From contig CAYRXT010000014.1 in NCBI GenBank assembly GCA_964428315.1, forward strand, positions 1 to 61,525: DNA of 61,525 nt, read 5' to 3'. Positions 4,014 to 47,279 of the stretch are shown here, piece by piece (within the stretch, counting starts at the first letter, position 1; the number at the start of each line of letters is the position of its first letter). The DNA comes from an uncultured Planctomycetales bacterium (GTDB lineage Bacteria > Omnitrophota > Gorgyraeia > Zapsychrales > CAYRXT01). The position numbers and the translations under genes were made by a program. The notes beneath the pieces were generated by a model. It was not told where the DNA came from and searched no databases. It was given only the letters and a program-made list of their open reading frames with translations.

Positions 4014-4198
4014 TATTTCCTAATTCTTCCCTTTAAAAATTTATCAATATGATACTGCTGTATCTTGTTCGGTCGTGTTTTGCCGTTCAGCCAACGGCTC
4101 ACGGTCGAGAAATTTACGCCTATCTCGTCCGCAAGTTCCTGTTGTGTGATCCTGTTTTCTAAACGGTATAATTCAAGTTGTTTGATTAAGTCATCCAT
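4013..4198 (-). CDS. XRE-family HTH protein, probable R-M controller
   Basis: ITQQELADEIGVNFSTVSRWLNGKTRP; stop overlaps the MTase start (TAATG). Confidence 0.85.
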   Translation of the reverse strand: MDDLIKQLELYRLENRITQQELADEIGVNFSTVSRWLNGKTRPNKIQQYHIDKFLKGRIRK

Positions 4199-5408: not shown

Positions 5409-6156
5409 TCTCTCCCTCCCTGATCATGGGAACGAACCGGACGGGAAAAACGCTCTCGCGTTCCAGGCCGCTCTCGGTCTTGGTGATTACAAGCAGTTCC
5501 TGATACACCGACCCCACGGGGATCACCATACGCCCGCCGGCCTTGAGCTGGTCCGCCAGCGCCTGGGGCACATCCTCCGGCGCCGCCGTGACGATAATGG
5601 CATCAAAGGGCGCGTGCTGAGGCCACCCCTTGTATCCGTCGCCGTGTTTGACATGGACATTCCCGTACCCCAGCTCCTCCAGGCGCTCTGCCGCGCTTTT
5701 GGCCAGCGGTTCGACGATTTCGATCGTGTACACCTTATCCGCTATTTCCCCCAGGATCGCGGCCTGATAACCGGAGCCGGTCCCGATCTCCAGCACTTTG
5801 TCATCCTTATCCAGCCGGGCCGCCTCGGTCATGTACGCGACGATGTACGGCTGGGAGATCGTCTGGCCGTGGCCGATGGGCAGGGGGCCGTCATTGTACG
5901 CCCACATCCGGGACGCGGCCGGGACAAACAGATGCCGCTCCACTTTCCGCATCGCTTCCAGCACCCCGGGATCCCTGACGCCGCGGTCTTCGATCTGATG
6001 TTTCACCATGGCTTCGCGCTTTTCCATAAATCCATCCCTCCCCTCGGCCAGAAGCAGGCCGGACGCAAACAGCAATCCTAAGACAACAATAACGCCGGCC
6101 CATTTCATAAAGTGTTTTTTCTCCTGCGATCTGTTTTGTTCTTTCTGGAATTTCAT
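5401..6156 (-). CDS. pcm: Protein-L-isoaspartate O-methyltransferase with N-terminal hydrophobic segment
   Basis: GQTISQPYIVAYM, VLEIGTGSGYQAA, APFDAIIVTAA, VRFVPM. Confidence 0.95.
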   Translation of the reverse strand: MKFQKEQNRSQEKKHFMKWAGVIVVLGLLFASGLLLAEGRDGFMEKREAMVKHQIEDRGVRDPGVLEAMRKVERHLFVPAASRMWAYNDGPLPIGHGQTISQPYIVAYMTEAARLDKDDKVLEIGTGSGYQAAILGEIADKVYTIEIVEPLAKSAAERLEELGYGNVHVKHGDGYKGWPQHAPFDAIIVTAAPEDVPQALADQLKAGGRMVIPVGSVYQELLVITKTESGLERESVFPVRFVPMIREGENE

Positions 6157-6168
6157 AAGCGATCTGAT

Positions 6169-7680
6169 TTATCCGAAAAGCTGGATTTGCGTTTCGGTCT
6201 TTTTGGTCTTGCGGGTCCGGGCCTTGTCGCGTTCGATGAGCTCTTCTTTGATTTTCGACAAGAACCGAGAAGGGGCGTTGCGCAGGGCCTTTCCGAAGAG
6301 AACCCGTTGCGCGGCCCTCACCAAAAATAAGCGCTCCCCGGCCCGCGTCATCCCGACATAGAACAGCCTGCGCTCCTCTTCTTCATCCGCGGCCATGTTC
6401 AATATATTCAAGGGAAGGAGGTTCTCTTCGCACCCGACGACAAAGACGACCGGGAATTCCAGCCCCTTGGCGGCGTGCAGAGTCATCAGAGTCACCTTTT
6501 CCGGTTCGACTTCGGGTTCGACGATGCCGCCGGAGGGAATGTCCGTCCGGTCTTCTGCGGAGGACATCTCCTCTTTACCCGAGACATGATAGGGGATGCC
6601 GCTTCGGTCCAAGGCCTCCTTAAGCGGCCGCGCCTGGGCCCTGAGCCGGTAGAGGACCGCGATATCCCCGAATGTCATCTCTCCCAGGTCCTCCGCGCCG
6701 ACCCGCCCGGAATCCTGCGAAAACAAGCTGGTCCCTCCGACGAGTTTTTCTATCTGATGGACGACATATTCGGCCTCGGCCTTGTCCGTCGGTGCCGCGT
6801 GCACCGTAAGGCGTCCCTGCCGGATGATTTTCGCGGTCAAAGGCGGCACCGTGAACCGGCTCCCGGCGATGACCTGTCCGGAGGCGGCCAGGAGGCCCGC
6901 GGCGGATCGGTAATTTTCCTCCAGAAAGCACCGCTCGGCCCCGGGAAAGTCATCTTCGAAACTTTCAAAATATCCGACATCCGCGCCGCGGAAGCCGTAG
7001 ACCGCCTGGTTGGGATCACCGATGGCCGTGAGCCGGTTTCCCGGCCCGGCGATCGTTCTCAACAGGGCGTGCTGGACGGGATTGATATCCTGGTATTCGT
7101 CGACAAAGATCTGTGTGTACAACGACCTCGTTTCCCGGCGGATGTCCGGCCGGTCGATCAGAAGGAACAGTGTTTCCCTCAAGATGTCGTCGAAATCAAG
7201 CCAGCTGCGCTCCCGGAGCCACGCGTTGTATCGGGCCACGGGACCGGGGCATTCTCTGTCGAGGCTGACGGCCTTCCAGCGGATGATTGCCTCTGCGGCG
7301 TCCCTGGATTCGTTTAAGGACCTGATATATCTCTGCAGGGCATCCTCGGGCGCGACGGACACCTGTTTTCCCCCGTTAAATTCCGCCGCGTGGTCCCTCA
7401 GAACCGCGAGGCAGAACTGATGGAAGGTCCCGGTAAAAATATTGTTTAACCGGGCGGGGACAAGGGCGGCCAGCCTGTCTTTCATCTCGCCGGCGGCCTT
7501 GTTAGTAAAAGTCACGGCCAGGATCTTCCGGCCCGGGGGGAGGTCTCCGGCATTGCGTGCGATCCGGCGGGTCAGGGTATGGGTCTTGCCCGTGCCGGGT
7601 CCGGCCACGATGAGCAGATGTTCCGCCGGATGGTTTACGGCCCGCCACTGGGCGTCGTTGATGTCGGGGGGGCGTTTCAT
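6169..7680 (-). CDS. UvrD/PcrA-family SF1 DNA helicase (compact)
   Basis: AGPGTGKT, VDEYQD, GDPNQAVYGFRGA, ENYRS, TLHAAKGLEF, EERRLFYVGMTRA; start taken at ATG 7680 because the longer ORF start lies inside the palindrome. Confidence 0.9.
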   Translation of the reverse strand: MKRPPDINDAQWRAVNHPAEHLLIVAGPGTGKTHTLTRRIARNAGDLPPGRKILAVTFTNKAAGEMKDRLAALVPARLNNIFTGTFHQFCLAVLRDHAAEFNGGKQVSVAPEDALQRYIRSLNESRDAAEAIIRWKAVSLDRECPGPVARYNAWLRERSWLDFDDILRETLFLLIDRPDIRRETRSLYTQIFVDEYQDINPVQHALLRTIAGPGNRLTAIGDPNQAVYGFRGADVGYFESFEDDFPGAERCFLEENYRSAAGLLAASGQVIAGSRFTVPPLTAKIIRQGRLTVHAAPTDKAEAEYVVHQIEKLVGGTSLFSQDSGRVGAEDLGEMTFGDIAVLYRLRAQARPLKEALDRSGIPYHVSGKEEMSSAEDRTDIPSGGIVEPEVEPEKVTLMTLHAAKGLEFPVVFVVGCEENLLPLNILNMAADEEEERRLFYVGMTRAGERLFLVRAAQRVLFGKALRNAPSRFLSKIKEELIERDKARTRKTKKTETQIQLFG

Positions 7681-7750: not shown

Positions 7751-9037
7751 TCAGAACAGGGTCATCTGCCCTTCTTTTTTCCGGCGGTCTTCTTCGGTAA
7801 AGATCGCGACCTTGCCGTATTCCCCGTCATAGCCGGCCGCGATGTTCACCTCGCCGCTTCTCACCCGGGCGATCCCTTCGGCCGCCAGGTCTCCCGCGCA
7901 CTCCTTAATCCTGTCCAAAGGCGCCTCCCGGAGGATAAACATCTCATTGCCTAAACCGGCGAGCATCTCCCTGAACACATGCTGCACCGCCTTCGTATTC
8001 GGCCCCACACCCCGCGCGTCGGCGATGATCTCGGGCAGGGGGATCAGACTTGAGAAGGGGCGCCACCGCGGGGACTTCCGCCCCTCCGGATGGTCGGCGA
8101 GATCCTCCACCCTGGCCATGACCCCGACGGTTACCGGTTTGCCGCAGACCGGACACAGGCCCTTGTTGTCCCTCGTTTCGCGCGGACACAGGCGCGTCCG
8201 GCACTGGCGGTGCCCGTCGTAATGATATTTCCCCTCCTGCGGGTAAAATTCCACCGTCCCTTCCAGTCCTGCGTTATCGGGATCCCGGAGGGCCCCGTAA
8301 ATCCCGCGGTAAGAAAATTCCGTGTTATAGACCGTGGCCTCGCGGCCGAGCTTGCCCGGCGAGTGGGCGTCGGAATGCGAAACAAGGACATAGGGGTCGA
8401 GCTGGCTTAGACGCCAGTTCATGGGCGGATCGGACGAGAGACCGGTCTCCACCGCGAAAATATGACCGGTGAGATCCCCGAAACAGTCCTCTATCCTGTC
8501 GAAACCGCCTTTCGAGCCAAGCACCGAAAACCACGGCGTCCAGATGTGCGCGGGGACAAGGCAGCTCAAAGGATCCGATTCCAGCACGATCTCCAGCAGG
8601 TCGCGGGAATCCAGTCCGAGGATCGGCCGCCCGTCGGAGCGGATATTGCCGATCGTCTCGAGCTTTTTCTGGACTTTTTTCGCCGCGGCGAATGACGGGA
8701 AAAAAACGACGTTATGGACCTTGCGCACCCTGTCCATCCGCTTGTAGATATTGGAGATCTCGACGGTAAGCATGAAGCGCACCGTCCCCCGGCAGGAAAC
8801 GGGCAGTTCTTTTTCGAGGGGGCCGGCATATTCCGGCCTTAAGGAAAACAGGCCTTCTTCGGCTGGTTCGAGTTTGTCCTCAAGTTCTTTCAGCCAGCCG
8901 GGATGGACGCAGTCTCCGGTCCCCGCGACCTGGATGCCTTTCCTCTGGGCCCAGAGCCAGAGGTGTTCCAGGTCGAGGTCCTTGCTCGTCGCGCGGGAAA
9001 AACGGGAATGGACGTGGAGGTCGGCATAAAACCGCAT
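7751..9037 (-). CDS. Endonuclease Q-family PHP-domain protein
   Basis: ADLHVHSRFSRATS, PAHIWTPWFS, ETGLSSD, SDAHS, GKYHYDGHRQC...CPVCG Zn site, GYDGEYG; start at ATG 9037. Confidence 0.88.
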   Translation of the reverse strand: MRFYADLHVHSRFSRATSKDLDLEHLWLWAQRKGIQVAGTGDCVHPGWLKELEDKLEPAEEGLFSLRPEYAGPLEKELPVSCRGTVRFMLTVEISNIYKRMDRVRKVHNVVFFPSFAAAKKVQKKLETIGNIRSDGRPILGLDSRDLLEIVLESDPLSCLVPAHIWTPWFSVLGSKGGFDRIEDCFGDLTGHIFAVETGLSSDPPMNWRLSQLDPYVLVSHSDAHSPGKLGREATVYNTEFSYRGIYGALRDPDNAGLEGTVEFYPQEGKYHYDGHRQCRTRLCPRETRDNKGLCPVCGKPVTVGVMARVEDLADHPEGRKSPRWRPFSSLIPLPEIIADARGVGPNTKAVQHVFREMLAGLGNEMFILREAPLDRIKECAGDLAAEGIARVRSGEVNIAAGYDGEYGKVAIFTEEDRRKKEGQMTLF

Positions 9038-9220
9038 CGGGATTTCCTTTCGGCAGTACGGGACTGGCTTCAGAAATACTACCAAAAGGAAAATGGAATT
9101 GCAACCGAAAAAACCATCGGAGAGCGGATCATCAGGGCGTGACGGCCCCCGCGCCGTCGCGGGAAGAGCTTCGGACAAAGAGCGAAGCCAGGACCGGGTC
9201 AAAAGAGGCCGCCCCCCTCC

Positions 9221-9248
9221 ACTTAACACTTAACACTTAACACTTAAC
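9221..9248. repeat. Heptamer tandem repeat (acttaac)x4
   Basis: Four perfect copies followed by degenerate gcttac. Confidence 0.9.
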
Positions 9249-9256
9249 GCTTACAA

Positions 9257-9496
9257 TCAGCTCGCCTTTTCCTGGTATCCGCACTTTGCGCAGACCCAGC
9301 GGTGCTCGCTCTTGCCCCCCAGCCGGGAGGCCCAGATGATGAGCGGCACCCCGATCAGACATCCGACGACGGTCATGCACAACAGGCCCCCGATGATGAT
9401 CAGAAACACGACCAAGCCCTTGCCGTGCACCTTCACATCCTGGGTGCGCATCATCCCATCGCATTTCTTGCAGTGTAACGTGCTGGTATCGACCAT
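9257..9496 (-). CDS. Small membrane protein with CxxC-hydrophobic hairpin-CxxC (LITAF-like Zn-ribbon layout)
   Basis: CKKC, about 30 hydrophobic residues, CAKC; upstream AGGGAG RBS. Confidence 0.7.
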   Translation of the reverse strand: MVDTSTLHCKKCDGMMRTQDVKVHGKGLVVFLIIIGGLLCMTVVGCLIGVPLIIWASRLGGKSEHRWVCAKCGYQEKAS

Positions 9497-9545
9497 AGTC
9501 TCCCTTTCCTTTGTTTGACGGCCATTGTTGTTAAACGGACGCGGC

Positions 9546-9962
9546 TTATCTTTTGAGATAGTTCAGGATGCCTTCTTTAAACCGCGCAAAGTCAGTTAAC
9601 TTCGTCGTCGCCTTCTCAAACACCAGTTCATCATTAATATCCGCGTATTCATGAACGAGGATGTTCCGTAACCCCCTCATCTCTTTCAATAACCGCGCCG
9701 TCTCTTCAGGAATAACATCCTCATTGCGCAGTTTGTCAAAGAGGTCATTCTCATCCGCCGGCAGTCCGGACCTCAATCCCGAAACCATTAACTTGCAGAT
9801 GTCAATCGTGCATTCAACACTTAACTGGAGAAGGCGTTCGCAGCTTCGTTTAATTTCCGTTCTTTGATACCGGGAAAATTCCGCCGGCGTCACGCCCCTC
9901 AATTCTTTCAAATATCCGTCCAATTCATCGATCTTCGCCAGGACGCGGCTCTCATCCACCAT
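9546..9962 (-). CDS. HEPN (DUF86/HepT-like) RNase toxin
   Basis: RNILVHEY (R-x4-H motif), ERLLQLSVECTIDI; start at ATG 9962. Confidence 0.9.
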   Translation of the reverse strand: MVDESRVLAKIDELDGYLKELRGVTPAEFSRYQRTEIKRSCERLLQLSVECTIDICKLMVSGLRSGLPADENDLFDKLRNEDVIPEETARLLKEMRGLRNILVHEYADINDELVFEKATTKLTDFARFKEGILNYLKR

Positions 9963-10353
9963 TTTTGACCTCCTCCAGATACTCTCTGTAGATATGCTCA
10001 AAGTCGGAAAATTCGCGGATGACCTTGAAGGCCTCCTCATACAGGCGGTCTTCATCCCGGCAAAAAAGGACCTTGCCGTCCTTCAGGATCCTCTGGCGGA
10101 TGTAGATCGGGACCTGCTGAAAAATCCGGACATCCAGGTCCGGGCAATCGGCAAGATAATCCAGTCTCTTTTGCGACACGGCCCTGGGGGCGCGGCCGCC
10201 CGGCTCCAGGACCAGGGCCACGTCCGTATCGGAAAGAGGCCCGCCCTCGTCCCGGCCCCTGCTGCCGAACAGGAACACCGCAAGGACCTCCGGGTCCCCC
10301 CGCGCGCGCCGCAGAAGTTTATCCAATTCTGGGTTTGTATTTTTCGCGTCCAT
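9952..10353 (-). CDS. Minimal nucleotidyltransferase (MntA-like) antitoxin
   Basis: LFGSRGRDEGGPLSDTDVA (GS-x10-DxD); overlaps the HEPN gene. Confidence 0.9.
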   Translation of the reverse strand: MDAKNTNPELDKLLRRARGDPEVLAVFLFGSRGRDEGGPLSDTDVALVLEPGGRAPRAVSQKRLDYLADCPDLDVRIFQQVPIYIRQRILKDGKVLFCRDEDRLYEEAFKVIREFSDFEHIYREYLEEVKNGG

Positions 10354-10480
10354 GTGTTAATTTAAATTGTCACCGGGCCGGCGCCTCTCCGGCACGAATA
10401 ATGATATTATACCCCAATAAGCTCGTCTGACCAGAGGCAAGCACGGATTTTTTTGCGTCACACCTAAACAACAGCCGTTT

Positions 10481-11263
10481 ATGCTCAAAGGCCTCAAACA
10501 TCTTTACAGTTACCGGGATCTGTTCCTAATCCTTGTCTGGCGCGATCTCAGTGTGCGCTACCAACAGGCCGTTCTGGGCATCGCCTGGGCCGTAATCCAA
10601 CCTTTAAGCATGATGCTGTTGTTTACTTTTATTTTTACTTATATAATGCCAGTGAAGATTTCTAATATTCCAAAACCCGTCTTTTTTTATGCAGGACTTC
10701 TCCCGTGGACATTTTTTCTCTCTTCAGTAAATGATGCTATTCCCAGCCTTATCGTTAATTATAATCTAGTTAAAAAGATTTATTTTCCAAAAATTTTTCT
10801 TCCAACTACCGGGTTAGTAGTGGCCAAGGTTGATTTTTTGATATCATTAGTCCTGTTCTTTGGTCTCCTTTCTATTTTCAAAATTCCATTAACATGGTCA
10901 ATTCTGTGGATTATCCCCTTATTTATTCTTCTTATACTCTTTACTCTTTCATTAGCTCTGATCTTGTCAGCCCTCAATGTCTATTATCGGGATGTCAGCT
11001 TGGCATCTGCATTCTTGCTACGACTCCTTTTTTTTGCCTCCCCCATCCTTTACAGCATTAATGACGTGTCGGAAAGGCTAAAACTAGTTTTGATGATAAA
11101 TCCTATGACTTTCATCATTGAAAATATGCGTCGATGCATGGTGGAAGGACGAACAACCAACCCTTGGCAATATGCCATCATGCTTGCATTCTCTTCCATC
11201 CTTTTAATTATGAGTTACCAATTTTTTAGACGAACCGAGAAAAAATTTTCCGATGTTATCTAA
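10481..11263 (+). CDS. wzm: Polysaccharide ABC exporter permease
   Basis: RDLSVRYQQAVLGIAWAVIQPL, KKIYFP, YYRDV, NPMT; multiple TM segments. Confidence 0.9.
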   Translation: MLKGLKHLYSYRDLFLILVWRDLSVRYQQAVLGIAWAVIQPLSMMLLFTFIFTYIMPVKISNIPKPVFFYAGLLPWTFFLSSVNDAIPSLIVNYNLVKKIYFPKIFLPTTGLVVAKVDFLISLVLFFGLLSIFKIPLTWSILWIIPLFILLILFTLSLALILSALNVYYRDVSLASAFLLRLLFFASPILYSINDVSERLKLVLMINPMTFIIENMRRCMVEGRTTNPWQYAIMLAFSSILLIMSYQFFRRTEKKFSDVI

Positions 11264-11969
11264 TAATAGCGCCATAGAATTTAAGAATATCTGGAAAAAA
11301 TATTCTCGAAGCAGAATATTTCACCGATCATTAAGGGAGGATTTATCTAATATTTTCTGTCAGACGAAACAAGAAAACGAGTTGCATAAAGATGAGTTTT
11401 GGGCGCTTCAAAATATCAATTTTCAGATAAAAAAGGGCGAAACAGTCGGTTTTTGGGGGGGCAATGGAGCAGGAAAAAGCACCATCTTAAAAATGATTGC
11501 TAATATTACTTACCCTTCTCGCGGCTCACTCATCGCCCAGGGAAAAATCGCTCCTCTTCTCGAAATCGGAGCCGGATTTCATCAAGATTTAAGCGGACGG
11601 GAAAACATCTTTATTAACGGAGCTATCCTTGGGATGACCATTAAAGAAATTAAAGCAAAACTTGACTCCATCATTGACTTCTCTGAGGTCAAAGCGTTTA
11701 TTGACATGCCTGTCAAGAAATATTCAAGCGGCATGTACCTAAAACTTGCTTTTGCTATCGCTATCCACAGCGAAGCGGATATTTATCTGTTTGATGAAAT
11801 AATTGCCGTGGGAGATGAAGCCTTCCGTAAAAAATGTTTAGAGAAGATTTCGGATTTGCAAAAGGAGCAAAAAACAATTCTTTTTGTTTCACATAACAAA
11901 CAGTTGCTTTATGAAAAATCTCACCGTGTTTTAAACATATCAAAAGGGTCAATAATCAATCAAAATTAA
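11253..11969 (+). CDS. wzt: Polysaccharide ABC exporter ATPase (no C-terminal carbohydrate-binding domain)
   Basis: GGNGAGKST, LSGRENI, YSSGM, DEIIAVGD, VSH. Confidence 0.9.
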   Translation: MLSNNSAIEFKNIWKKYSRSRIFHRSLREDLSNIFCQTKQENELHKDEFWALQNINFQIKKGETVGFWGGNGAGKSTILKMIANITYPSRGSLIAQGKIAPLLEIGAGFHQDLSGRENIFINGAILGMTIKEIKAKLDSIIDFSEVKAFIDMPVKKYSSGMYLKLAFAIAIHSEADIYLFDEIIAVGDEAFRKKCLEKISDLQKEQKTILFVSHNKQLLYEKSHRVLNISKGSIINQN

Positions 11970-12013
11970 TAAAAGCACCACGGAGCAAGCGCATAAAACT
12001 TTGTTCATCGGTT

Positions 12014-13819
12014 TTATGTAACAAAGAAATGTTCATGCCACATAAGAAGATGAGATGCCTCAGGACACCTGTCAATATCCTCATTTAAAAAATGCTCAAT
12101 GTTCTCGATATTAAATCCCTTTCCCGAAAAAGCACCTGCTGCATCGGGAGATTTAGAAAGTAGCCTTTTGGAAGGCATTTGAGATTCTGCCTTGATCCTC
12201 TTCAGAATCTTTCCCTTAAGAATTCTTGTCGAGACATCATAAAACCGCCTTCTTATTCCCTGCAAATCGGCTGGTAAATATTGACCTCCAGATACTGTCG
12301 CCACATTGAAAAAATCAGGGTACATCCGTTTAAGAAGAGTTCGATAAAACTTATCCTGTAGTTTCATGTAAGGGGGGATAGTTAAGGCAAATTCAACAAG
12401 ATCTTTATCCATTAAAGGACAAAAGGTTTCGGCCTTTGTTAAAACTAAAAGAGGGACCAAGGAGGAATTTCGTCTTATTCTGTTTTGCAAATAGAAAAGA
12501 GACACTTTGTTAGGTGTATTTAGATCGATTAAATCTTTTTTGATAAAATCAAAAGACTTTTCGATCATGCAATCCGAATATCTATTTCGGAATAACTTTT
12601 TTACTATCTTGACCCTATCGGCTTTCTCTTTTCGCAATATATTCAATATTCCATCATTATTATTTTCAAAAGAATACCTTACATTTGTTTCAGTAAGCAT
12701 AACCCCTCTCCCGAAAAGATCTCCTCCCATTCCTTCAAAATTAACAAGCGTGCCCCGCCCCAAAGAGAATATTAAAGGCATTAACCAAAGGTGCAAGGGG
12801 CAAAGTCCATCAGTTATGTAAAACCACTTTTCTCTATGCATCTCTAAACTGTCAGGCCCGTAATAAGCAATTGTATGATTAAGTTTCAATCTTCTTGCCA
12901 CTTGTACTGCCAAAAGACAATCCATTATATTCTTATAGGCTATTTTGGGAGTTGTGTACGTTTTGAAGTCTAACGTTTGGGGCATAAGTTGAGATATGGT
13001 ATAAGCGATACACCGGCTATCATAGCCTCCGCTGAGAAAACAAATGGCCTCTTTCAGCCCTTTGATTTGGCGTTTCACTGCTTGCTCTATTAAAGTTTTC
13101 CCTTTTTCAAGGAAATAATTTTCGGATTGGTTTTCTTCGATTTTTATCTCTTTCCCCTCCCAATATTTATACAGAAAGAGCCTTCCCCCTTCGTATATTA
13201 AAGTGCTTGCGGCAGGCAGGGCAAAAATGTTCTCAAAGAAGGTTTCGTTACCATTAACTCCTTCAAAAATAAAGAAATCCCCCCATGCTTTCCAGTTTAT
13301 TTTTCTTTCTAAGCTTTTGTCTGCAAGGAGACCTTTGACTTCGGAAGCAAAAATAAATTTTTCTTTGTCAGCATAATAATATAATGGTCGCATTCCATAT
13401 CTATCATTAACAATCACAACCCGTTTATTTTCCTCGTCCCAGATAGCAAACGTAAAGAGGCCGTATAAATCCTTTATAAAACTAGTCCCTTTTTCTTCAT
13501 AGCAGTGCAAAATAAATTCAGCATCATTCTCGAGATATCGAAAGGCATGGCCTCTTTTTTCTAATTCCGTGCGCATAGTTGAGTAATCAAATATTTTTCC
13601 AGCCATGACAATACATTTCGTTCTGCACTGATTCCAAATAGGTTGCGGCTCCAAGTTGAATTTCTGAATAGACAGATGCCCCATCGCAATATATTGAAAA
13701 GACTTCTGCTCTATTTTATGCCAGCTTTCATGTCGCATAGAATAAAGCATCCGCCTTATCAAACGATTTTTATGTTCTATGTCATTTTTCCTGCTGACAA
13801 TGCCACAAATTTTACTCAT
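12014..13819 (-). CDS. Asparagine synthetase-related amidotransferase/ligase
   Basis: Ntn-like N-terminal domain (DRYGMRPLYY, FASEVK), LSGGYDSR PP-loop; N-terminus MSKICG lacks the position-2 Cys. Confidence 0.8.
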   Translation of the reverse strand: MSKICGIVSRKNDIEHKNRLIRRMLYSMRHESWHKIEQKSFQYIAMGHLSIQKFNLEPQPIWNQCRTKCIVMAGKIFDYSTMRTELEKRGHAFRYLENDAEFILHCYEEKGTSFIKDLYGLFTFAIWDEENKRVVIVNDRYGMRPLYYYADKEKFIFASEVKGLLADKSLERKINWKAWGDFFIFEGVNGNETFFENIFALPAASTLIYEGGRLFLYKYWEGKEIKIEENQSENYFLEKGKTLIEQAVKRQIKGLKEAICFLSGGYDSRCIAYTISQLMPQTLDFKTYTTPKIAYKNIMDCLLAVQVARRLKLNHTIAYYGPDSLEMHREKWFYITDGLCPLHLWLMPLIFSLGRGTLVNFEGMGGDLFGRGVMLTETNVRYSFENNNDGILNILRKEKADRVKIVKKLFRNRYSDCMIEKSFDFIKKDLIDLNTPNKVSLFYLQNRIRRNSSLVPLLVLTKAETFCPLMDKDLVEFALTIPPYMKLQDKFYRTLLKRMYPDFFNVATVSGGQYLPADLQGIRRRFYDVSTRILKGKILKRIKAESQMPSKRLLSKSPDAAGAFSGKGFNIENIEHFLNEDIDRCPEASHLLMWHEHFFVT

Positions 13820-13877
13820 TCAAAATATACCTCTTTTACTATTGATTCTCTGGCCTTCCCGGAACATTCATCTTGAT

Positions 13878-14939
13878 TTATAAAATGGTCTTTTCAACAA
13901 AATTGTTAAATTTCTCGGAAGTCTTCAATATGCCCAAATCGATCAACTGCTGGCTGTTAGTAAACTTAACGGAGTCTGGACAATATAAATTTATATCAGG
14001 TTTCCTTTTGACGACGTCCATATATAATTTATATTCTATTGCTTTATTCCAATATTCTTTTCGTTTTATTTCCTCTTTAGTCTTATCGATAAAATCATCA
14101 AAAAATTTAAAATGAAACAATGCGCCATGGACATTAGAAATAATCGCATCCTGGATTTTATGGGCTCCCCGGCTTAGAGACATGGATGGTGTTAGTTTAA
14201 ATAAAGGAAATTTTGTTAAGTTCAATCTATTCAGGCCAAAAACGCGACTTCGCATGCCACCAAAATACCGGAAATCTTGGGAAGACCGGCAACCCGGAAA
14301 ATTATACTTTTCTTTATAATGCGATCTCGCATCAAAGTATGGACATACTAATAGAGGGTTTTCGCCTTCACGGTACTTGGTAGAAACAATTGGCCTGTTT
14401 GAATACATATCCAACAAAAGACATTGCAAGGCATTAAATCCTTCCTGATCAAGATAATGACATAAATCGGCAAGAGAGACATCTTCTTTACGAGGATACA
14501 TCAGGATTTCATCTGTATCAACGACAATACACCAGTGATTTATGCCGTAGCGGTGTAGAAGAATATCCAGCCATAACTCCTTTTTTACAAAACTTTCGCC
14601 TGTTTGAAAAAGATGAACGTTTTTATGTCCTTTCAGGATTTGGATTGTGTTGTCCGTTGAATTATTATTAATAGCAATGATTCGATCAACTCCAAGATCA
14701 AAATAGTATTTGAGAAAAAACGGCAATCGAAGGGATTCATTTCTAACGACAAGAAATAATCTTATTTCGGCAGAATTGTTCGGGATATCTTGTTTATTAA
14801 GGCGTTTCATCCGAAAAGAAGACACTGTTCGCAAGAAGAATCGGAAACAATTATTAAACTCCTTAGATCTCTTTAATAGATTCTTCATAGCAGTCTTGTT
14901 GCCAAAGGTTACCTCGTGTTTTCTATTTTTCCAGGTCAT
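13878..14939 (-). CDS. GT2-like glycosyltransferase (paralog 1)
   Basis: RNESLRLPFFLKYY, NNNSTD, VDTDE, LFHFKF. Confidence 0.82.
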   Translation of the reverse strand: MTWKNRKHEVTFGNKTAMKNLLKRSKEFNNCFRFFLRTVSSFRMKRLNKQDIPNNSAEIRLFLVVRNESLRLPFFLKYYFDLGVDRIIAINNNSTDNTIQILKGHKNVHLFQTGESFVKKELWLDILLHRYGINHWCIVVDTDEILMYPRKEDVSLADLCHYLDQEGFNALQCLLLDMYSNRPIVSTKYREGENPLLVCPYFDARSHYKEKYNFPGCRSSQDFRYFGGMRSRVFGLNRLNLTKFPLFKLTPSMSLSRGAHKIQDAIISNVHGALFHFKFFDDFIDKTKEEIKRKEYWNKAIEYKLYMDVVKRKPDINLYCPDSVKFTNSQQLIDLGILKTSEKFNNFVEKTIL

Positions 14940-42700: not shown

Positions 42701-43358
42701 GAGCCGTGCCCCGAAGGACCGGCCTGTCGGGAGACATGGCCCTGGACCGGTGCGCAAGGACAAGCGTGTCATCGATCAAGGCGCGGATGTCATCATCTGT
42801 CAGTTTTTCGATCTTGGATATCTCATGTGAGGTCCGGAAACCGTCAAAGAAATGGATAAAAGGCACGCGCGTCTGCAGGGTCGCCGCGTGGGCGATCAAG
42901 GCCATATCCATCACCTCCTGGATGCTGGACGAGGCCAGCAGGGCAAAACCCGTGGCCCGGGCGGCCATCACATCGGAATGATCACCAAAAATGGAAAGGG
43001 CCTGGGCCGCCAGTGACCGCGCCGCGACGTGAAAGACAGTTGGCGTCAACTCGCCCGCGATCTTGTACATGTTGGGGATCATCAAAAGGAGCCCCTGCGA
43101 GGCCGTAAAGGTGGTGGTCAGACCGCCCCTCTGAAGGGCCCCGTGAACCGCGCCCGCGGCGCCGCCTTCAGACTGCATCTCCTGCACCAGCGGCGTGGTG
43201 CCCCAGATATTTTTACCGCCGTTGGCCGTCCATTCGTCGGCCCATTCCCCCATGGGTGAAGAAGGCGTAATAGGATAAATGGCAATCACATCGGATACTT
43301 TAAAGGCAACATGGGCGGCCGCCTCATTGCCGTCCATCATCATAGGTATGCGTTCCAT
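39798..43358 (-). CDS. nifJ: Pyruvate:ferredoxin/flavodoxin oxidoreductase
   Basis: YPITPS, QSEGGAAG, two 4Fe-4S motifs, GACAGCGETPY, GGDGWAYDIG, YSNTGGQ. Confidence 0.97.
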   Translation of the reverse strand: MERIPMMMDGNEAAAHVAFKVSDVIAIYPITPSSPMGEWADEWTANGGKNIWGTTPLVQEMQSEGGAAGAVHGALQRGGLTTTFTASQGLLLMIPNMYKIAGELTPTVFHVAARSLAAQALSIFGDHSDVMAARATGFALLASSSIQEVMDMALIAHAATLQTRVPFIHFFDGFRTSHEISKIEKLTDDDIRALIDDTLVLAHRSRAMSPDRPVLRGTAQNPDTYFQARETVNLYYEKCPQIVQETMDRFAKMTGRQYRLFDYFGSPDAERVIVIMGSGAETCQETVEHLVKNGEKVGVVRVHLYRPFSVGHFMESLPATTRTIAVLDRTKEPGSAGEPLYLDVVNALVETQGTKFESMPRVSGGRYGLSSKEFTPAMVKGVLDEIAGKEPKRHFTVGIRDDVSHTSIDYDEQFSTESASGVRAVFYGLGADGTVSANKSSIKIIGENTPHYAQGYFVYDSKKSGSMTVSHLRFGPEAIHAPYLISRANFLGCHQFNFLEKTDVLKSIDKEGVFLLNSPYGPEEVWGHLPRNVQQSVIDKKLKFFVIDAYKVAKETGMGQRINTIMQTCFFAISGILPKDEAIEQIKTYIKKTYGKKGDQIVQMNYNAVDRTLENLHEVKVPDKVTSTLEMRPPVPREAPEFVQRVTAEMIAGRGDRLPVSALPVDGTYPTGTTRWEKRNIALEIPEWDPDVCIQCGKCVLVCPHSVIRAKVYESASLENAPETFKSTKAKDRDLSDRMYTIQVAPEDCTGCGICVDVCPAKNKQETRLKAINMRPQLPLREQEMNNWDFFLKIPDLDRQKVKHSTVRGTQYLQPLFEFSGACAGCGETPYVKLMSQLFGDRAVVANATGCSSIYGGNQPTTPWTTNSDGRGPTWSNSLFEDNAEFGLGFRLAIDKQKEYAAELLKKMESKIGGDLVREILASGQADEAEIFEQRKRVERVKEKLKGDSSADARQLMSVADMLVKKSVWIVGGDGWAYDIGYGGLDHVIASGRNVNILVLDTEVYSNTGGQMSKATPRSAVAKYAAAGKPVPKKDLARMAMTYGSVYVANVAMGAKDEHTVRAFIEAERYDGPSLIIAYSHCIAHGTNMTTAMQDQKAAVASGYWPLFRFNPDLAKEGKNPLQLDSGDPKVKFEEYAYRQNRFKILTKSKPELAKNLMELAQKDVDERWTVYKTMSVRPDSQSEQG

Positions 43359-43464
43359 AAAAAACTCCTTCTCGTTAGTTTGCGGTATTGTAGTCGAAAG
43401 ATTTGTAAATGTAAATATTTATTTAAATCATACCAAGAGAATCCGGGAAATGAATTCGAATTCC

Positions 43465-43482
43465 TACGCAGTTTTCTAGGTA
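43465..43482. promoter_or_regulatory. Candidate activator site TACGCA-N6-TAGGTA upstream of the nifJ-hox operon
   Basis: 14/18 match to the reverse complement of 52077-52094; similar spacing to a TATGAT -10 (43427-43432) and to the start codon. Confidence 0.45.
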
Positions 43483-43553
43483 TTAATACGGTATTGTGTT
43501 TTTACCGAATCGGAGGATCGTTTGGCCGGCATAACATGCCCGCAGGGCATGCC

Positions 43554-43940
43554 TTATGCCACGTTGGCTTCGATGGTCTTGAGGAGGTCTTCCGGTTTAA
43601 CGGGCTTTTCCAGCACCGCCTTAACGGGCAGCCAGTCCTTGTCCGGTTGAAACCCGTAAGCCACATCCGTTTCCTTGCGGATCCCGGTGACGATAATAAC
43701 CGGGATATCCCTTGTCGAGGGCTCGTCGCGCAGGCCCCGGGCGACATCGAATCCTTCGGTCTGATGTGTCATCATCACATCCAGGAGGATCAGATCCGGC
43801 TTCCCGGATTTGGCCGCGGCAAGTCCCTCTTCCCCGCTCCCGGCGGTCAAAACCCCGTAGCCTTTGGCCTCCAGCAAGACACTCACGGCCTCCTGAAAGT
43901 CCGGATCATCATCGACAATAAGCACCGTCTTTTTTGCCAT
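43554..43940 (-). CDS. Single-domain response regulator (receiver)
   Basis: VLIVDDD, LILLDVMM, IVTG, EKP. Confidence 0.92.
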   Translation of the reverse strand: MAKKTVLIVDDDPDFQEAVSVLLEAKGYGVLTAGSGEEGLAAAKSGKPDLILLDVMMTHQTEGFDVARGLRDEPSTRDIPVIIVTGIRKETDVAYGFQPDKDWLPVKAVLEKPVKPEDLLKTIEANVA

Positions 43941-43952
43941 CCATGGCCTCCT

Positions 43953-44474
43953 TTAATTTTCCGCCTCTGTTTCGGCAACCGTGAAGACAAACGTGTTGCC
44001 GTCTCTTCCGGCCTCAACCCAAATACGCCCGCCGTGCTTCTCCACAATCTGTTTCGTGATGAAAAGCCCGAGCCCCGTCCCTTTGATCTTCTTCTTTTCG
44101 GGGGGCGCCGCCAATCGGGAAAATTTCCTGAACAATTGTCCCTGAGCCGAAGCGGGAATGGGCTCCCCGTCATTATGGAGCCCCACGGGCAAGCCCGTGG
44201 CCCCTCTCCCAATTACCCCTTGCATAAACACTTGAGCATTTCTCCGAAATTTTCTGCGTATGCTTCGGGGTTATCCGACTTCGTAAATCTTCAGGCGCAA
44301 TCCGACGAAGCCCCACGGCTTTTAGTCCGCATTCATCCACGGCTAAAAGCCGTGGTATTCTGCGAAGTCGGATAAATCTCAAAACGGCAACAATCAAGGT
44401 CCTCGACGGCGCTGATGCGCACCTTCCCGCCGGCGCGGCCGTATTTCACGGCATTACGGATAAGATTGTTCGCC
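43953..44474 (-). pseudogene. Displaced 3' fragment of the histidine kinase gene, interrupted by a 197-bp insertion
   Basis: 43974-44474 equals 45432-45735 apart from 3 substitutions and the insertion; ends VAETEAEN* right before the receiver RBS. Confidence 0.9.
44177..44373. mobile_element. Non-autonomous miniature element with IS200/IS605-like subterminal hairpins
   Basis: Absent from the paralogous empty site (TTATAA at about 45631-45636); hairpins ccacgggc-aa-gcccgtgg (44183-44200) and ccacggct-aaa-agccgtgg (44337-44355); no transposase. Confidence 0.8.
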
Positions 44475-44490
44475 GCTCGTTCTCGCCACC

Positions 44491-45276
44491 CTACTCAAAT
44501 CCCTCGACAGAACTTATCTCTTTGACTTTTCCATCCGGACCGAATGTTATAGTAAACTGCGTATGCCAAAAACCGGGACCTATGAACATTACTTTCAGTG
44601 TGATAATTTCTCTTTGACGATCCGGCATTGATGAAATTGCGGAAAAACATTCCGCATCATCTACTGAAAAATTGCTAACGTCATTATTGAAGTGGCAGGA
44701 CAAATAGCGCGTGGGGTAGCCGCGCAAAAGGTCCCGGACCTCTTCCCCGGTCATCCCAATAGCAACACCGGCATGAGCATCCTTGGCCAGTTCAGGTTGC
44801 CGCCAATCTCGCGCGGTGAAATCCGCACATTGCTTAATGAAAAAGAGAGTAGCCGCCATCAGGCCGATGACGATCCACACGCTTAGCCTTTGCGTCATTT
44901 TCTTTCCGAATGGTTTCTTTCCCTGCAAAACATGGTCCGCCTGTCTCAACAAATACAAAGGAATGAAAATCCCAAACCCGAAAGGGATAAGAAAAACCGC
45001 CATCTGCCAAAACCAGGCCTCGCTTCCTCTTGACATTTCTGAAAGCAGACGGTTAATGTCGAAGATTAAGATAAGAAACAAACAAATCGCCAATAAGATC
45101 AGGACGAGAAAAGAAATTAGGGCTAAAGACGTGAATAATTCATTTTCAGCAAGTCCTCCCGGTAAATTCGGGACGTTGGCGAGCAATAGCACTAAAAACA
45201 AAAAGGCCGCGATGATTCCCCAGAACCATAGATAGTTCCGGAGCACCTTGTTTTTAACGTGTTCTAATGCTTCCAC
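44491..45276 (-). CDS. Hypothetical membrane protein (about 4 TM + C-terminal extracytoplasmic domain), cargo between direct repeats
   Basis: Hydrophobic helices; C-terminal IGMTGEEVRDLL...FGPDGKV reminiscent of SmpA/OmlA-like domains; lower GC than flanks. Confidence 0.75.
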   Translation of the reverse strand: MEALEHVKNKVLRNYLWFWGIIAAFLFLVLLLANVPNLPGGLAENELFTSLALISFLVLILLAICLFLILIFDINRLLSEMSRGSEAWFWQMAVFLIPFGFGIFIPLYLLRQADHVLQGKKPFGKKMTQRLSVWIVIGLMAATLFFIKQCADFTARDWRQPELAKDAHAGVAIGMTGEEVRDLLRGYPTRYLSCHFNNDVSNFSVDDAECFSAISSMPDRQREIITLKVMFIGPGFWHTQFTITFGPDGKVKEISSVEGFE

Positions 45277-45362
45277 TATTGCCTTGCCTTCCGATAAGCG
45301 ATAAGAAACAACCGGTTAGGCTCTTTCAATTCAGATGAAAAACCGGTGCTTAAATCTGAACA

Positions 45363-47279
45363 TTACGTGTCCCTGTGAGTGACTTGGTCCGCTCTTCGTT
45401 CTTTGGGCCGTTCTTCAGGATGTCTTTTTTTGGCAACCGTGAAGACAAACGTGTTGCCGTCTCTTCCGGCCTCAACCCAAATACGCCCGCCGTGCTTCTC
45501 CACAATCTGTTTCGTGATGAAAAGCCCGAGCCCCGTCCCTTTGATCTTCTTCTTTTCGGGGGGCGCCGCCAATCGGGAAAATTTCCTGAACAATTGTCCC
45601 TGAGCCGAAGCGGGAATGGGCTCCCCGTCATTATAAATCTCAACACGGCAACAATCAAGGTCCTCGACGGCGCTGATGCGCACCTTCCCGCCGGCGCGGC
45701 CGTATTTAACGGCATTACGGATGAGATTGTTCGCCACGATCTTGAGAAGTTCACCGTCGGCGTTGACCGACACATGTTCGGGCACGGCATTCTCTATCTT
45801 CAGGCCCTTTTCGGCAATCTGCTCCTTGAACACCTCCAGGGATTCATCCACTATGTCCTTTTTTAGAAGGATATCCCTCCGGTCCAAATGCAGTTCGCCC
45901 TTTTCGAACCGGCTGAGGTCCAAAAAATTCCGTATCGTAAACGAAAGCTGTTCGAGATTGCGCCCGACCGAATCAAGGAGCGTCTTCTGCCGTTCATTAA
46001 CGGCCCCCAAAAATCCCCCTTTCACGGAGTGGACATTGAGAATGGCCGAGGCGATCATACCCTTCAGTTCATGCGAGACAAATCCCACCAGGTCGAGATA
46101 ATTCTTGTTCAGAGCGGCCAGCTTCTTGTTGGAATCGTCCAGGCTCTTCTCCCGGGCGGCCAGCTTTCCGCCCATCTCGTTAAAAGAAACCGCCAGTTCA
46201 TTCAATTCCGTGACAGGGGTTCTCGCTTCGACTTTGCTCTCAAGTTGTCCCTCCGACATATGCCTCGTCTTTTGGAGGAGCTCCATCAGCGGCCTCGTCA
46301 AAAAGGTGGCCAGGACGCAGGACAGGGCGACGGCGATCAAAGATACGGCCGCCGTGATCCCCAAAAACGCCAGAAAGATATTGCGCCGCATGTCGTTGAA
46401 CGGCTTCTCCAGAATGCCGACATAAAGGATCCCGATAACAGCGCCTTCGATGTTGCGGATCGGCTCGTAAGCGGTGATATACCAGTCGGTGACCACAAAG
46501 GCCCGGGCAAACCACTGGCGGCCGTTTTCCACGACCTGCTCGTAAACCTCTTCGGAGACCCTCGTTCCCACGGCGCGCTCCCCCTCACCGTCTACGACAT
46601 TGGTCGCCACCCGGACGTCGTCCTGAAAGATCGTCACGGTACCCATGGGTTTGGAATCGTAAAACTTCCTCTCAAATACCGCGTCACGGATATTATCGAC
46701 AATCTCATGGTTCCTGTTGAGGACCCTGCCGCCGAACAGGACCCGCTCCACATCCCCCTTCTCGCTGAATACCGGCCGTGCATATTCAATGCTCATGGCG
46801 CTTGTCAAGCGCGTCTTTTCGGTGGCACGGGCGCGGGGGGTATAGCGGACCGGGATAGCCGATTTCCTGTACACGTCCCGTCCGATCTTGACGAGCTCTG
46901 CCTCCTCGATGATGCGCGTGCCCGCCATGGGACGGCCCACGCGCACGGCCTCACGGACGATCAGGCTCTCCGCCGTCTCGGCCTCTTCTTTCCCGATCAG
47001 ACGCAGATAGTCCAGCCCCAGCCTGTCCCGGATGCGAAAAAGGCTGGCCCCCTCCTCCCGGGGCTGGACAATCTCCAAGGCGAAACGGATGCGCGCGCCC
47101 TGTTCATCATAAGCCATCCGGGCGGTCTTGAGATTGTTGTTGACCTCTTCCTGGGCCCGGTCCAGGATGTAGCGCCTGATCACATAAAAATTCAAGACCG
47201 ACAGCCCCAGCGCCAGAAAACAGATAACGCTCAGGAAGCATACGACCAGGACATCTCTCAGGTGAACGTGCCTTTTCAT
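45363..47279 (-). CDS. Sensor histidine kinase (TM-Cache-TM-HAMP-HisKA-HATPase)
   Basis: TIFQDDVRVATNV...WYITAYEPI Cache domain, FVSHELK, NNLIRNAVKY, GTGLGL. Confidence 0.93.
   Translation of the reverse strand: MKRHVHLRDVLVVCFLSVICFLALGLSVLNFYVIRRYILDRAQEEVNNNLKTARMAYDEQGARIRFALEIVQPREEGASLFRIRDRLGLDYLRLIGKEEAETAESLIVREAVRVGRPMAGTRIIEEAELVKIGRDVYRKSAIPVRYTPRARATEKTRLTSAMSIEYARPVFSEKGDVERVLFGGRVLNRNHEIVDNIRDAVFERKFYDSKPMGTVTIFQDDVRVATNVVDGEGERAVGTRVSEEVYEQVVENGRQWFARAFVVTDWYITAYEPIRNIEGAVIGILYVGILEKPFNDMRRNIFLAFLGITAAVSLIAVALSCVLATFLTRPLMELLQKTRHMSEGQLESKVEARTPVTELNELAVSFNEMGGKLAAREKSLDDSNKKLAALNKNYLDLVGFVSHELKGMIASAILNVHSVKGGFLGAVNERQKTLLDSVGRNLEQLSFTIRNFLDLSRFEKGELHLDRRDILLKKDIVDESLEVFKEQIAEKGLKIENAVPEHVSVNADGELLKIVANNLIRNAVKYGRAGGKVRISAVEDLDCCRVEIYNDGEPIPASAQGQLFRKFSRLAAPPEKKKIKGTGLGLFITKQIVEKHGGRIWVEAGRDGNTFVFTVAKKRHPEERPKERRADQVTHRDT
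45432..45735. repeat. 304-bp direct repeat (intact copy in the kinase 3' end)
   Basis: Matches 43974-44474 minus the insertion. Confidence 0.93.

Follow-up and report, generated by a model that had tools for sequence, protein, structure and literature searches.

The window is the 61,525-nt contig CAYRXT010000014.1 (C14) of assembly GCA_964428315.1, taken over its whole length. It belongs to a metagenome-assembled genome (MAG) of an uncultured Omnitrophota bacterium, recovered from a microbial-mat metagenome and comprising 77 contigs and 2.28 Mb. All of the features described here are on the minus strand. The open reading frames, Pfam domains and orthologues identify a histidine kinase gene (45363..47279) that in its present form encodes 638 amino acids, with sCache_3_3, HAMP, HisKA and HATPase_c domains, and a stand-alone receiver gene (43554..43940), also found in the orthologous loci, that encodes a Response_reg protein of 128 amino acids. 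By these Pfam assignments (HisKA and HATPase_c in the kinase, Response_reg in its partner) the two genes form a two-component system, and their adjacency is now broken, with 1422 bp between the stop codon of the kinase and the receiver gene. The intervening DNA holds an inserted segment of about 0.95 kb (44475..45431), a second copy of the 3' region of the kinase gene and a 197-bp MITE-like element.

The duplicated region is made of kinase codons 515-616. The upstream copy (copy A, 45432..45735; 304 bp) is unbroken with the rest of the kinase and matches positions 43974-44176 plus 44374-44474 (copy B) with exactly three substitutions (45644, 45708 and 45723). The match is far above chance, and copy B was the sole other copy when the 2.28-Mb genome was searched. 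The preliminary description had reported a 304-bp repeat at 43974-44474 with three substitutions; the repeat and the substitutions stand, but it overlooked that copy B spans 501 bp owing to the 197-bp element (44175..44371), which splits it at kinase codon 548/549. Comparison with copy A divides copy B into a 5' part of 101 nt (44374..44474), which has the three substitutions, and an exact 3' part (43974..44174) that extends to 44176 (203 nt) when an ambiguous AT is counted. All of the substitutions are 5' of the element, and the 203 nt beyond it have none. Two are synonymous and the third is V546F, at a conserved V/I position. The 304-bp identity block is purely coding and begins mid-codon, and the direct repeats that flank the insert consist of the 3' end of the target kinase itself. 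The two copies continue differently. In translation, copy A runs into VAKKRHPEERPKERRADQVTHRDT, whereas copy B runs to VAETEAEN, a stop codon, the AGGAGG motif and the receiver ATG. The last six codons (ETEAEN) and the TAA that follows them occupy 43953..43973 and, as judged from the sequence, the reading frames and the orthologues, represent the native end of the kinase.

Kinase orthologues were identified in six related genomes (42-48% identity), all from other families of the same order, the collection searched containing no close strain of the same genus. In 6/6 of these loci the receiver is the immediate downstream neighbor of the kinase, and none carried an element or other cargo at the kinase-receiver site. 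The orthologues terminate 2-5 residues past the last strand and do not have the tail of the present kinase; the ETEAEN end does likewise. Because all six loci are adjacent and the orthologues end in this way, the insertion is evidently the derived state and the downstream copy retains the native end, as the preliminary description had proposed from the position of VAETEAEN before the receiver. Its two further claims, that the insertion separated kinase from receiver and that it altered the kinase tail, were also borne out. The Pfam match to HATPase_c is complete and extends to residue 616; it is followed by 22 new codons (KKRHPEERPKERRADQVTHRDT) and a stop (45363..45431) that are encoded by the inserted DNA and have no counterpart in the orthologues. 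The kinase probably still works, and the receiver is probably still co-transcribed with it.

The inserted segment (44475-45431) has a GC content of 45.8%, compared to 56-57% for the kinase and the receiver, and falls within the lowest 5.3% of the genome's 950-bp windows. It is single-copy in the MAG; Blast searches of the genome for partial copies returned only chance words of up to 24 nt. Its only long open reading frame (44491..45276) confirms the low-GC gene of 261 codons noted earlier between the repeat copies and, from the alignment and a fold model, encodes a membrane protein whose N-terminus is predicted to form membrane helices. Its C-terminal domain (about 110 amino acids) is conserved, with the motifs GMTG..V, FMGP.FWH and DGKVKEIS and two invariant Cys. 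The protein has no Pfam match. Only 16 nt separate the cargo stop codon from the repeat; they hold GTGGCGA(G)AAC, which resembles the kinase sequence by the junction (GTGGCGAACAA). The segment is probably of foreign origin.

Few relatives of the cargo protein exist in the collections that we searched. There were seven besides itself among 1.84 billion representatives, none in 40 genomes of the same order, two in 401 genomes of the phylum (one of them the window's own) and, in a word-indexed search of 5.8 billion clusters, itself alone. The family is, by these counts, very rare. A three-row alignment query of a genome collection recovered one relative, in an Omnitrophota MAG; the one relative with genomic context lies in ordinary chromosomal DNA and has no flanking repeats. 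Viral contigs and plasmid collections gave no match, nor did metagenome contigs when queried for the protein and the exact 33-nt native-end pattern, a set that may not include the records of the source genome itself. The metagenome, genome, viral and plasmid collections provided no donor context for the insert, which counts against the reading given below. The fold model has a pLDDT of 75 for the whole protein and 79 for the C-terminal domain. Foldseek against the PDB found no match at E <= 0.001, with BamE and BLIP chains at E 0.13-0.63, and VIA-align in its wide mode matched the N-terminal helices alone (Z up to 8.7, common for helical models). A BamE-like domain, which we had considered, is therefore unsupported.

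In agreement with the preliminary description, we identified no recombinase or integrase remnant in the insert (six-frame reading frames and Pfam). The genome-wide search, which covered the Phage_integrase family, returned no match on the whole 61.5-kb contig and three elsewhere in the genome (on contigs C6, C7 and C66). The host genome also has matches above cut-off to the RecA, ComEC and DprA families. Their presence weakly supports an insertion anchored in homology, as these genes are widespread and not specific, with matches in 10-14 of the 14 control genomes as well. Our literature search found no documentation of transformation in Omnitrophota.

Relative to copy A, the element in copy B is a clean addition of 197 bp immediately ahead of the NDG motif of the kinase. 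It has 43 matches in its own genome, eight of them near full length and about 15 shorter copies; the ends are conserved among the aligned copies, and related ends occur in 14/40 related genomes. The single-stranded DNA folds into subterminal hairpins (-50.3 kcal/mol, z = -7.3). In gene sense, TTTAT adjoins the element on its 5' side, without target duplication, and the corresponding ATAAA follows the plus-strand end in 18/23 of the right ends listed, with ATGAA or ATAAG in the others. Miniature elements derived from IS200/IS605 are defined by hairpins near their ends, a constant target sequence at the flank and the lack of target duplication. With these palindrome-associated elements it also shares multiple copies and no terminal inverted repeats, so that its features are those of an IS200/IS605-like MITE. 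In contrast to this family, no cognate Y1 (HUH) transposase was found in the genome between ends of this type: the single Y1_Tnp match is weak (24.8 bits, on C7), and no MITE ends were found around it within positions 9001-14500 of that contig. An Rfam scan of 43300-45900 (E up to 1) gave three sub-threshold chance matches and assigned neither the MITE nor the insert to a known RNA family.

Taken together, the locus has the look of a scar left by a single recombination event and not of a novel type of mobile cassette. We give somewhat better than an even chance to an insertion-duplication anchored in homology, occurring once in the kinase-receiver operon and now apparently fixed. A low-GC segment carrying one gene for a rare membrane protein would have been joined to the 3' region of the kinase, using codons 515-616 as the homologous anchor and leaving them in two copies. 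The upstream copy would complete the ATP-binding domain and continue into the new codons, and the downstream one would be a dead remnant that retains the native six-codon end, the stop codon and the ribosome-binding site ahead of the receiver gene. The MITE that now sits in this remnant would have inserted either before or after the duplication. As to the route, we infer that either a small circularized fragment entered by a single crossover (Campbell-type) or DNA from a strain variant was taken up by homology-facilitated illegitimate recombination. The Campbell-type integration proposed in the preliminary description is one formally possible route, which the data do not tell apart from homology-facilitated illegitimate recombination or template switching. 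It was also noted, and counted against the scar, that simple homologous repair would need no such odd structure.

The locus resembles Campbell-type insertion-duplication in that direct copies of a single chromosomal segment flank the insert, the first continuous with the 5' portion of the gene and the second with its native 3' end, and in being reversible in principle by homologous recombination. It differs in lacking any known circular donor, replication origin or selection marker. In addition, the repeats differ by three substitutions and the 197-bp insertion, and the kinase was not cleanly restored but has acquired a new tail. Homology-facilitated illegitimate recombination, as described for S. 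pneumoniae, Acinetobacter baylyi, Pseudomonas stutzeri and conjugation in E. coli (PMC3240628, PMC2884548), offers another parallel. Foreign DNA is captured in these cases beside a single homologous anchor without a site-specific recombinase, one junction falling within the homology and the other being illegitimate (PMC3240628, PMC2884548). In contrast to the events in these reports, the anchor is duplicated at the kinase locus, and no donor was found on which microhomology could be scored.

Other explanations begin with the assembly, which we checked against Logan contigs from two runs (X1 and X2) of one study that differ fourfold in the abundance of the genome. Both novel junctions lie on one unitig (44417-45461) and have single-copy depth, at 24.8 versus 26.7 and 27.1 for the flanks in X1 and 6.9 versus 6.0-6.7 in X2. 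The 203-bp exact repeat, with a depth of 50.5 in X1, is at about twice this level and is bridged by no Logan contig of either run, so the linear order depends on the MAG assembler. An assembly loop could thus have been resolved incorrectly, in which case the chromosome would have the intact operon while the insert, the 101 nt, the MITE and the 203 nt formed a separate circular or tandem molecule of 1.45 kb or belonged to a co-occurring strain. The unitig graph permits both resolutions, the exact repeat exceeds the usual k-mers, and the source is a 77-contig MAG from a mat metagenome. We nonetheless regard this as quite unlikely. Equal depth of insert and flanks in two runs of such different abundance is what linkage predicts, and neither a minority strain nor a free circle would be expected to show it. 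Such a circle would be without a replication gene, and the junction of the insert end with mid-kinase sequence is real in both runs, so that some molecule has a kinase fragment after the cargo gene. The same contigs bear on the proposal of the preliminary description that a minimal, integrase-less cassette serves as a reversible switch. A 1.26-kb unit of cargo and kinase end would cycle between circle and integrated form via RecA, toggling the kinase tail and the coupling of kinase to receiver. Formally the structure equals a Campbell integrant, RecA is present and could recombine direct repeats of such length (203 and 101 bp), and two more low-GC cassettes without a recombinase lie between direct repeats in this genome. 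Against this, the contigs of the two runs, from which rare variants are dropped, contain no empty allele, restored or variant junction or circle-specific form, and in both the insert reaches about 0.9-1.0 of flank depth. As the MITE splits copy B, a crossover within the 203-bp part alone would restore the native operon, and one within the 101-bp part would yield a MITE-broken kinase. A remnant in decay would account for the three substitutions, of which one falls at a conserved V/I position, and a circle of 1.26-1.45 kb would have no replication or transfer function. Nor was the single-copy cargo found beside other duplicated gene ends, as the preliminary description had suggested it might be; its scarcity in the phylum, the lack of viral and plasmid matches and the repeat-free context of its relative all argue against a mobile cassette. 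Neither a dedicated cassette nor a reversible switch is supported by our results, and we consider a cassette acting as such a switch highly improbable.

No more credible is the erosion of a larger site-specific element that integrated at the kinase 3' end with a substitute end and then lost its integrase and most of its cargo. A duplicated target 3' end, a displaced native end and low-GC cargo are the architecture of elements that integrate into gene 3' ends. The kinase locus shares with such genomic islands the target 3' end as flanking direct repeats, the low-GC cargo and the native end displaced downstream to the far side, but its insert is a single gene without an integrase or a remnant of one. 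Moreover, the repeat is long (304 bp), contains coding sequence alone and opens within a codon, the native end is not reproduced in the replacement end, the cargo stop is a mere 16 nt from the repeat, and 0/6 orthologous loci have an element at the site. Unlikely, though less so, is that the MITE came first and broke the kinase just before the G1 box, and that an intact kinase end was later captured, with the cargo hitch-hiking, and selected for restoring the kinase. The position of the MITE ahead of the NDG motif would truncate the ATP-binding domain, and the rescue supplies a selective reason for the fixation of an odd structure. The distribution of the substitutions (3/3 located 5' of the MITE and none in the 203 nt located 3' of it; (101/304)^3 = 0.037) and the two synonymous changes, as between functional alleles, also fit. 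However, three substitutions are too few to discriminate, V546F affects a conserved column and agrees with later decay, the Logan contigs of the two runs contain no MITE-only allele, and a MITE landing in a dead remnant gives the same anatomy with no extra assumption.

The two further low-GC cassettes without a recombinase lie between direct repeats of 106 bp (contig C27) and 186 bp (C65); counted against a one-off event, they hint at something more regular than accident. One could speculate that the lineage routinely captures low-GC cassettes of one or two genes without a recombinase via homology arms of 100-300 bp (304 bp on C14), the kinase capture perhaps being selected as a rescue from the MITE break and leaving a structure able to flip to the native operon or to the broken kinase depending on the crossover site. 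To this combined scenario we attach a very low probability. Taken alone, the locus is one scar in one MAG and opens no new question. If its structure holds, it would be a clean natural case of a gene trapped beside a homologous anchor without mobile-element machinery. To our knowledge, it is rare to find such an event with its two junctions and the displaced native end still preserved. Captures of this kind are thought to supply much of the small-scale diversity of genomes, as proposed in one of the reports (PMC2884548). A two-component operon would also have been rewired, gaining a new kinase tail and an extra membrane protein, with the receiver 1.4 kb downstream behind a hairpin-rich MITE. 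For the uncultured Omnitrophota, this is a hint that capture at homologous anchors and IS200/IS605-like MITEs shape operons. Scans for regulatory sites gave six promoter-like (2.7 expected) and five terminator-like (5.6 expected) sites, on none of which we could rely. A strong -35/-10 match (45658-45630) falls within copy A, at the site that the MITE occupies in copy B.

The histidine kinase of this locus (638 aa, 47279-45363, minus strand), with sCache_3_3, HAMP, HisKA and HATPase_c domains in Pfam, is separated from a stand-alone receiver (128 aa, 43940-43554, minus strand; Pfam Response_reg) by a 261-aa cargo ORF (45276-44491), which the window's ORF list places on the same strand and which has no Pfam match. 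The distance from kinase stop to receiver start is now 1422 bp, formerly about a dozen, and the operon would now run kinase, cargo, a kinase remnant carrying a MITE-like element, and receiver. By our reading of the translations, putative hydrogenase maturation genes lie upstream of the kinase locus and a putative ORF of pyruvate:ferredoxin oxidoreductase size lies downstream of the receiver. Orthologous kinases (42-48% identity) were found in six related genomes from other families of the same order. All six orthologues end 2-5 residues past the last strand, 8-40 nt from the receiver start, and in all six loci the receiver follows directly, as a preliminary description had proposed to check in relatives. 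The downstream copy of the duplicated kinase segment ends in the same pattern (...FTVAETEAEN, stop, AGGAGG and the receiver ATG), and none of the orthologues has a counterpart of the 22 residues that end the present kinase. In Pfam, HATPase_c matches the present kinase as far as residue 616 (profile position 108 of 111), and the domain is thus complete before the new tail begins. Because of the adjacency, the shared end pattern and the unmatched tail, sequence comparison indicates that the insertion is derived and that the downstream copy holds the native kinase end, as the preliminary description had inferred.

A repeat search of the window paired 45428-45634 with 43970-44176 (207 nt) and 45633-45735 with 44372-44474 (103 nt, 97%). 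Direct comparison matched the upstream copy, 45432-45735, to 43974-44176 plus 44374-44474, with exactly three differences (45644, 45708 and 45723). The 304-bp duplication, its coordinates and its three substitutions are therefore as first described; what that account passed over is that 197 bp are inserted within the downstream copy, which consequently spans 501 bp. The repeat covers kinase codons 515 (third base onward) to 616, and no further copy was found elsewhere in the 2.28-Mb genome. Two of the substitutions are synonymous third-position changes and the other is V546F in the remnant, at a residue that is V or I in all six orthologues. All three lie 5' of the inserted element and none in the 203 nt on its 3' side, a distribution with a chance of (101/304)^3 = 0.037 by our own arithmetic. 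The pattern is compatible with a diverged donor allele, decay of the remnant or homogenisation of the 203-bp part.

The 197-bp element (44175-44371) has 43 matches in its own genome (2.28 Mb, 77 contigs), eight of them near full length; about 15 copies represent a shorter form of ~133 bp without positions 33-94, and the family occupies about 23 places besides this one. A conserved AT precedes the plus-strand start in 17 of the 20 left ends listed, and the plus-strand end is followed by ATAAA in 18 of the 23 right ends listed and by ATGAA or ATAAG in the other five. On the gene strand the element runs from 44371 to 44175, immediately 3' of TTTAT, and ends in ...GGGGCTCCAT. Set against the uninterrupted upstream copy, it is a clean 197-bp addition without target duplication. 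Folded as single-stranded DNA it reaches -50.3 kcal/mol (z = -7.3 versus shuffles), with hairpins near both ends. Hairpins, a TTTAT flank, no target duplication and many copies are what we take to be the traits of IS200/IS605-type miniature elements. Within the order, related ends were found in 14 of the 40 genomes compared. The element matched no Rfam family, and no cognate transposase was found in its own genome, whose sole Y1_Tnp match, at 24.8 bits on contig C7, lacks the element on its flanks. Its insertion site is at kinase codon 548/549, immediately ahead of the NDG motif in the ATP-binding domain, so the downstream copy is a broken remnant in any case. A strong sigma-70-like match inside the kinase CDS of the upstream copy (45630-45658, minus strand; TTGATT, 17 nt, TATAAT; 10/12) coincides exactly with the insertion site in the downstream copy, its TATAAT overlapping the TTTAT target; this match may serve as an internal promoter of the downstream gene or be no more than an AT-rich target.

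Support for the assembled structure came from the Logan contigs of two runs of one microbial-mat study (X1 and X2), which contained 0.89-0.92 of the sampled words of 43400-46200 and which may include the source sample of the MAG and are thus not independent of it. Both novel junctions lie on a single unitig (44417-45461). In X1 this unitig has a depth of 24.8, and its neighbours on either side 27.1 and 26.7; the corresponding values in X2 are 6.9 for the largest piece of the insert and 6.0-6.7 for the flanks, with two 210-nt pieces at 3 and 5. The exact 203-nt repeat formed a separate unitig in X1 with a depth of 50.5, about twice that of the flanks. Neither a joint skipping the insert nor variant letters at the three substitution sites were present in the contigs of either run. 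These observations agree with about 90-100% of the population carrying one integrated copy of the insert. No contig of X1 or X2 spans the 203-bp repeat and, for this reason, the unitig graph also permits an intact kinase-receiver operon plus a separate 1.45-kb circle. Such a circle is unlikely, as it would need a depth equal to that of the chromosome in two samples and carries no replication gene. The observation is real, and the linear order of the integrated insert rests on assembly across the unspanned repeat. The reversible switch envisaged in the preliminary description is possible in principle and unsupported in fact: a crossover between the 203-bp parts would remove the cargo and the element and bring back the native operon, one between the 101-bp parts would leave a kinase broken by the element, and neither product was present in the contigs of the two runs. 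At 45553 (twin position 44095), the double-depth repeat unitig of X1 reads C where the window and X2 read T; this may be the same variant in both copies (concerted change), or bubble popping in the X1 contigs may mask a one-copy difference.

The inserted DNA (44475-45431) is single-copy, and nothing beyond chance words matches it elsewhere in its genome. Its GC content of 45.8% falls in the lowest 5.3% of the genome's 950-bp windows (kinase, 56.1%; receiver, 57.4%). The cargo is a genuine gene. Among 1.84 billion representatives, an exhaustive HMMER search returned seven proteins besides itself (E <= 0.001), six of them small proteins in which its ~110-residue C-terminal domain follows a hydrophobic N-terminus. 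In this domain GM... and two Cys are invariant, FxGP is present and the end reads G...KV..I. In the AlphaFold model (pLDDT 75 overall; 79 when the C-terminal domain was modelled by itself), long helices at the N-terminus are followed by an alpha/beta domain at the C-terminus. Structural comparison with the PDB gave no significant match. The family is very rare: it was absent from all 40 genomes of the same order and from viral contigs and plasmids, and present in two of 401 sampled genomes of the phylum (the window's own and another at E = 4e-4). Among 185,579 species genomes one relative was found, in an Omnitrophota MAG, where it sits among ordinary chromosomal genes without flanking direct repeats of at least 40 nt. 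With a single-copy insert and a relative without flanking repeats, the minimal mobile cassette originally suggested lacks support.

In our view the locus illustrates two processes already known, the homology-anchored capture of foreign DNA and the insertion of a MITE; the history first put forward was right in outline (a derived insertion with the native end downstream) and missed the MITE. As the preliminary description had noted, the insert holds no recombinase by ORF list or Pfam; nor does any tyrosine recombinase match lie on this contig, the genome's three being on others. The repeat is purely coding and starts mid-codon, and it resembles a homologous anchor, not an attachment site. One possible route of capture is a Campbell-type single crossover in which a small circularised fragment bearing the anchor recombined with the chromosome; the other is homology-facilitated illegitimate recombination. 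In the latter, the incoming DNA recombines homologously at one end and is joined illegitimately at the other (PMC3240628, PMC2884548). RecA, ComEC and DprA are present in the genome but are near-universal genes. The 16 nt between the cargo stop and the downstream copy include GTGGCGA(G)AAC, like the kinase GTGGCGAACAA beside the junction, and the first 9 nt of the insert (AAAAAAGAC; 45427-45418) equal the region of receiver codons 3-5 (43938-43927, gene sense), 36 nt past the native junction; both likenesses may be microhomology or chance. GGTTGCC also resembles the GGATGGC that precedes the AAAAAAGAC match. The duplication was possibly longer at first and later lost 36 nt, leaving this similarity behind, or the similarity is chance in an A-run. 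With one genome seen, the MITE may have landed second, in an already dead remnant, or it may have come first and broken the kinase, the capture then being selected as a rescue.

Self-comparison of the genome for local repeats revealed two further cases outside repetitive giant genes. On contig C27 (locus L030), 106-bp direct repeats with three differences (11106-11211 and 13081-13186), two-copy in the genome, bracket 1869 bp of 45.1% GC with a 278-aa ORF without assignment and a DUF5131 gene split in two ORFs, just upstream of a SNF2/ResIII helicase. On contig C65 (locus L031), identical 186-bp direct repeats (3952-4137 and 6147-6332), the second 100 bp from the contig end, bracket 2009 bp of 42.9% GC encoding a DUF6036 nucleotidyltransferase and a small NikA-like protein, a pair that by our reading is toxin-antitoxin-like. 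This repeat corresponds to the sequence upstream of a GNAT gene and has a third copy (82% identity) on contig C23. No recombinase was found among the ORFs scanned in either segment. A more regular capture mechanism stays under consideration solely because three such loci occur in 2.28 Mb. On contig C30, two adjacent genes (740 and 769 aa) that begin with identical signal-peptide-like sequences have as their 5' parts the copies of a 1615-bp direct repeat (9241-10854 and 11630-13244; 99.9% identity, 776 bp apart), so that a recent tandem gene duplication seems likely.
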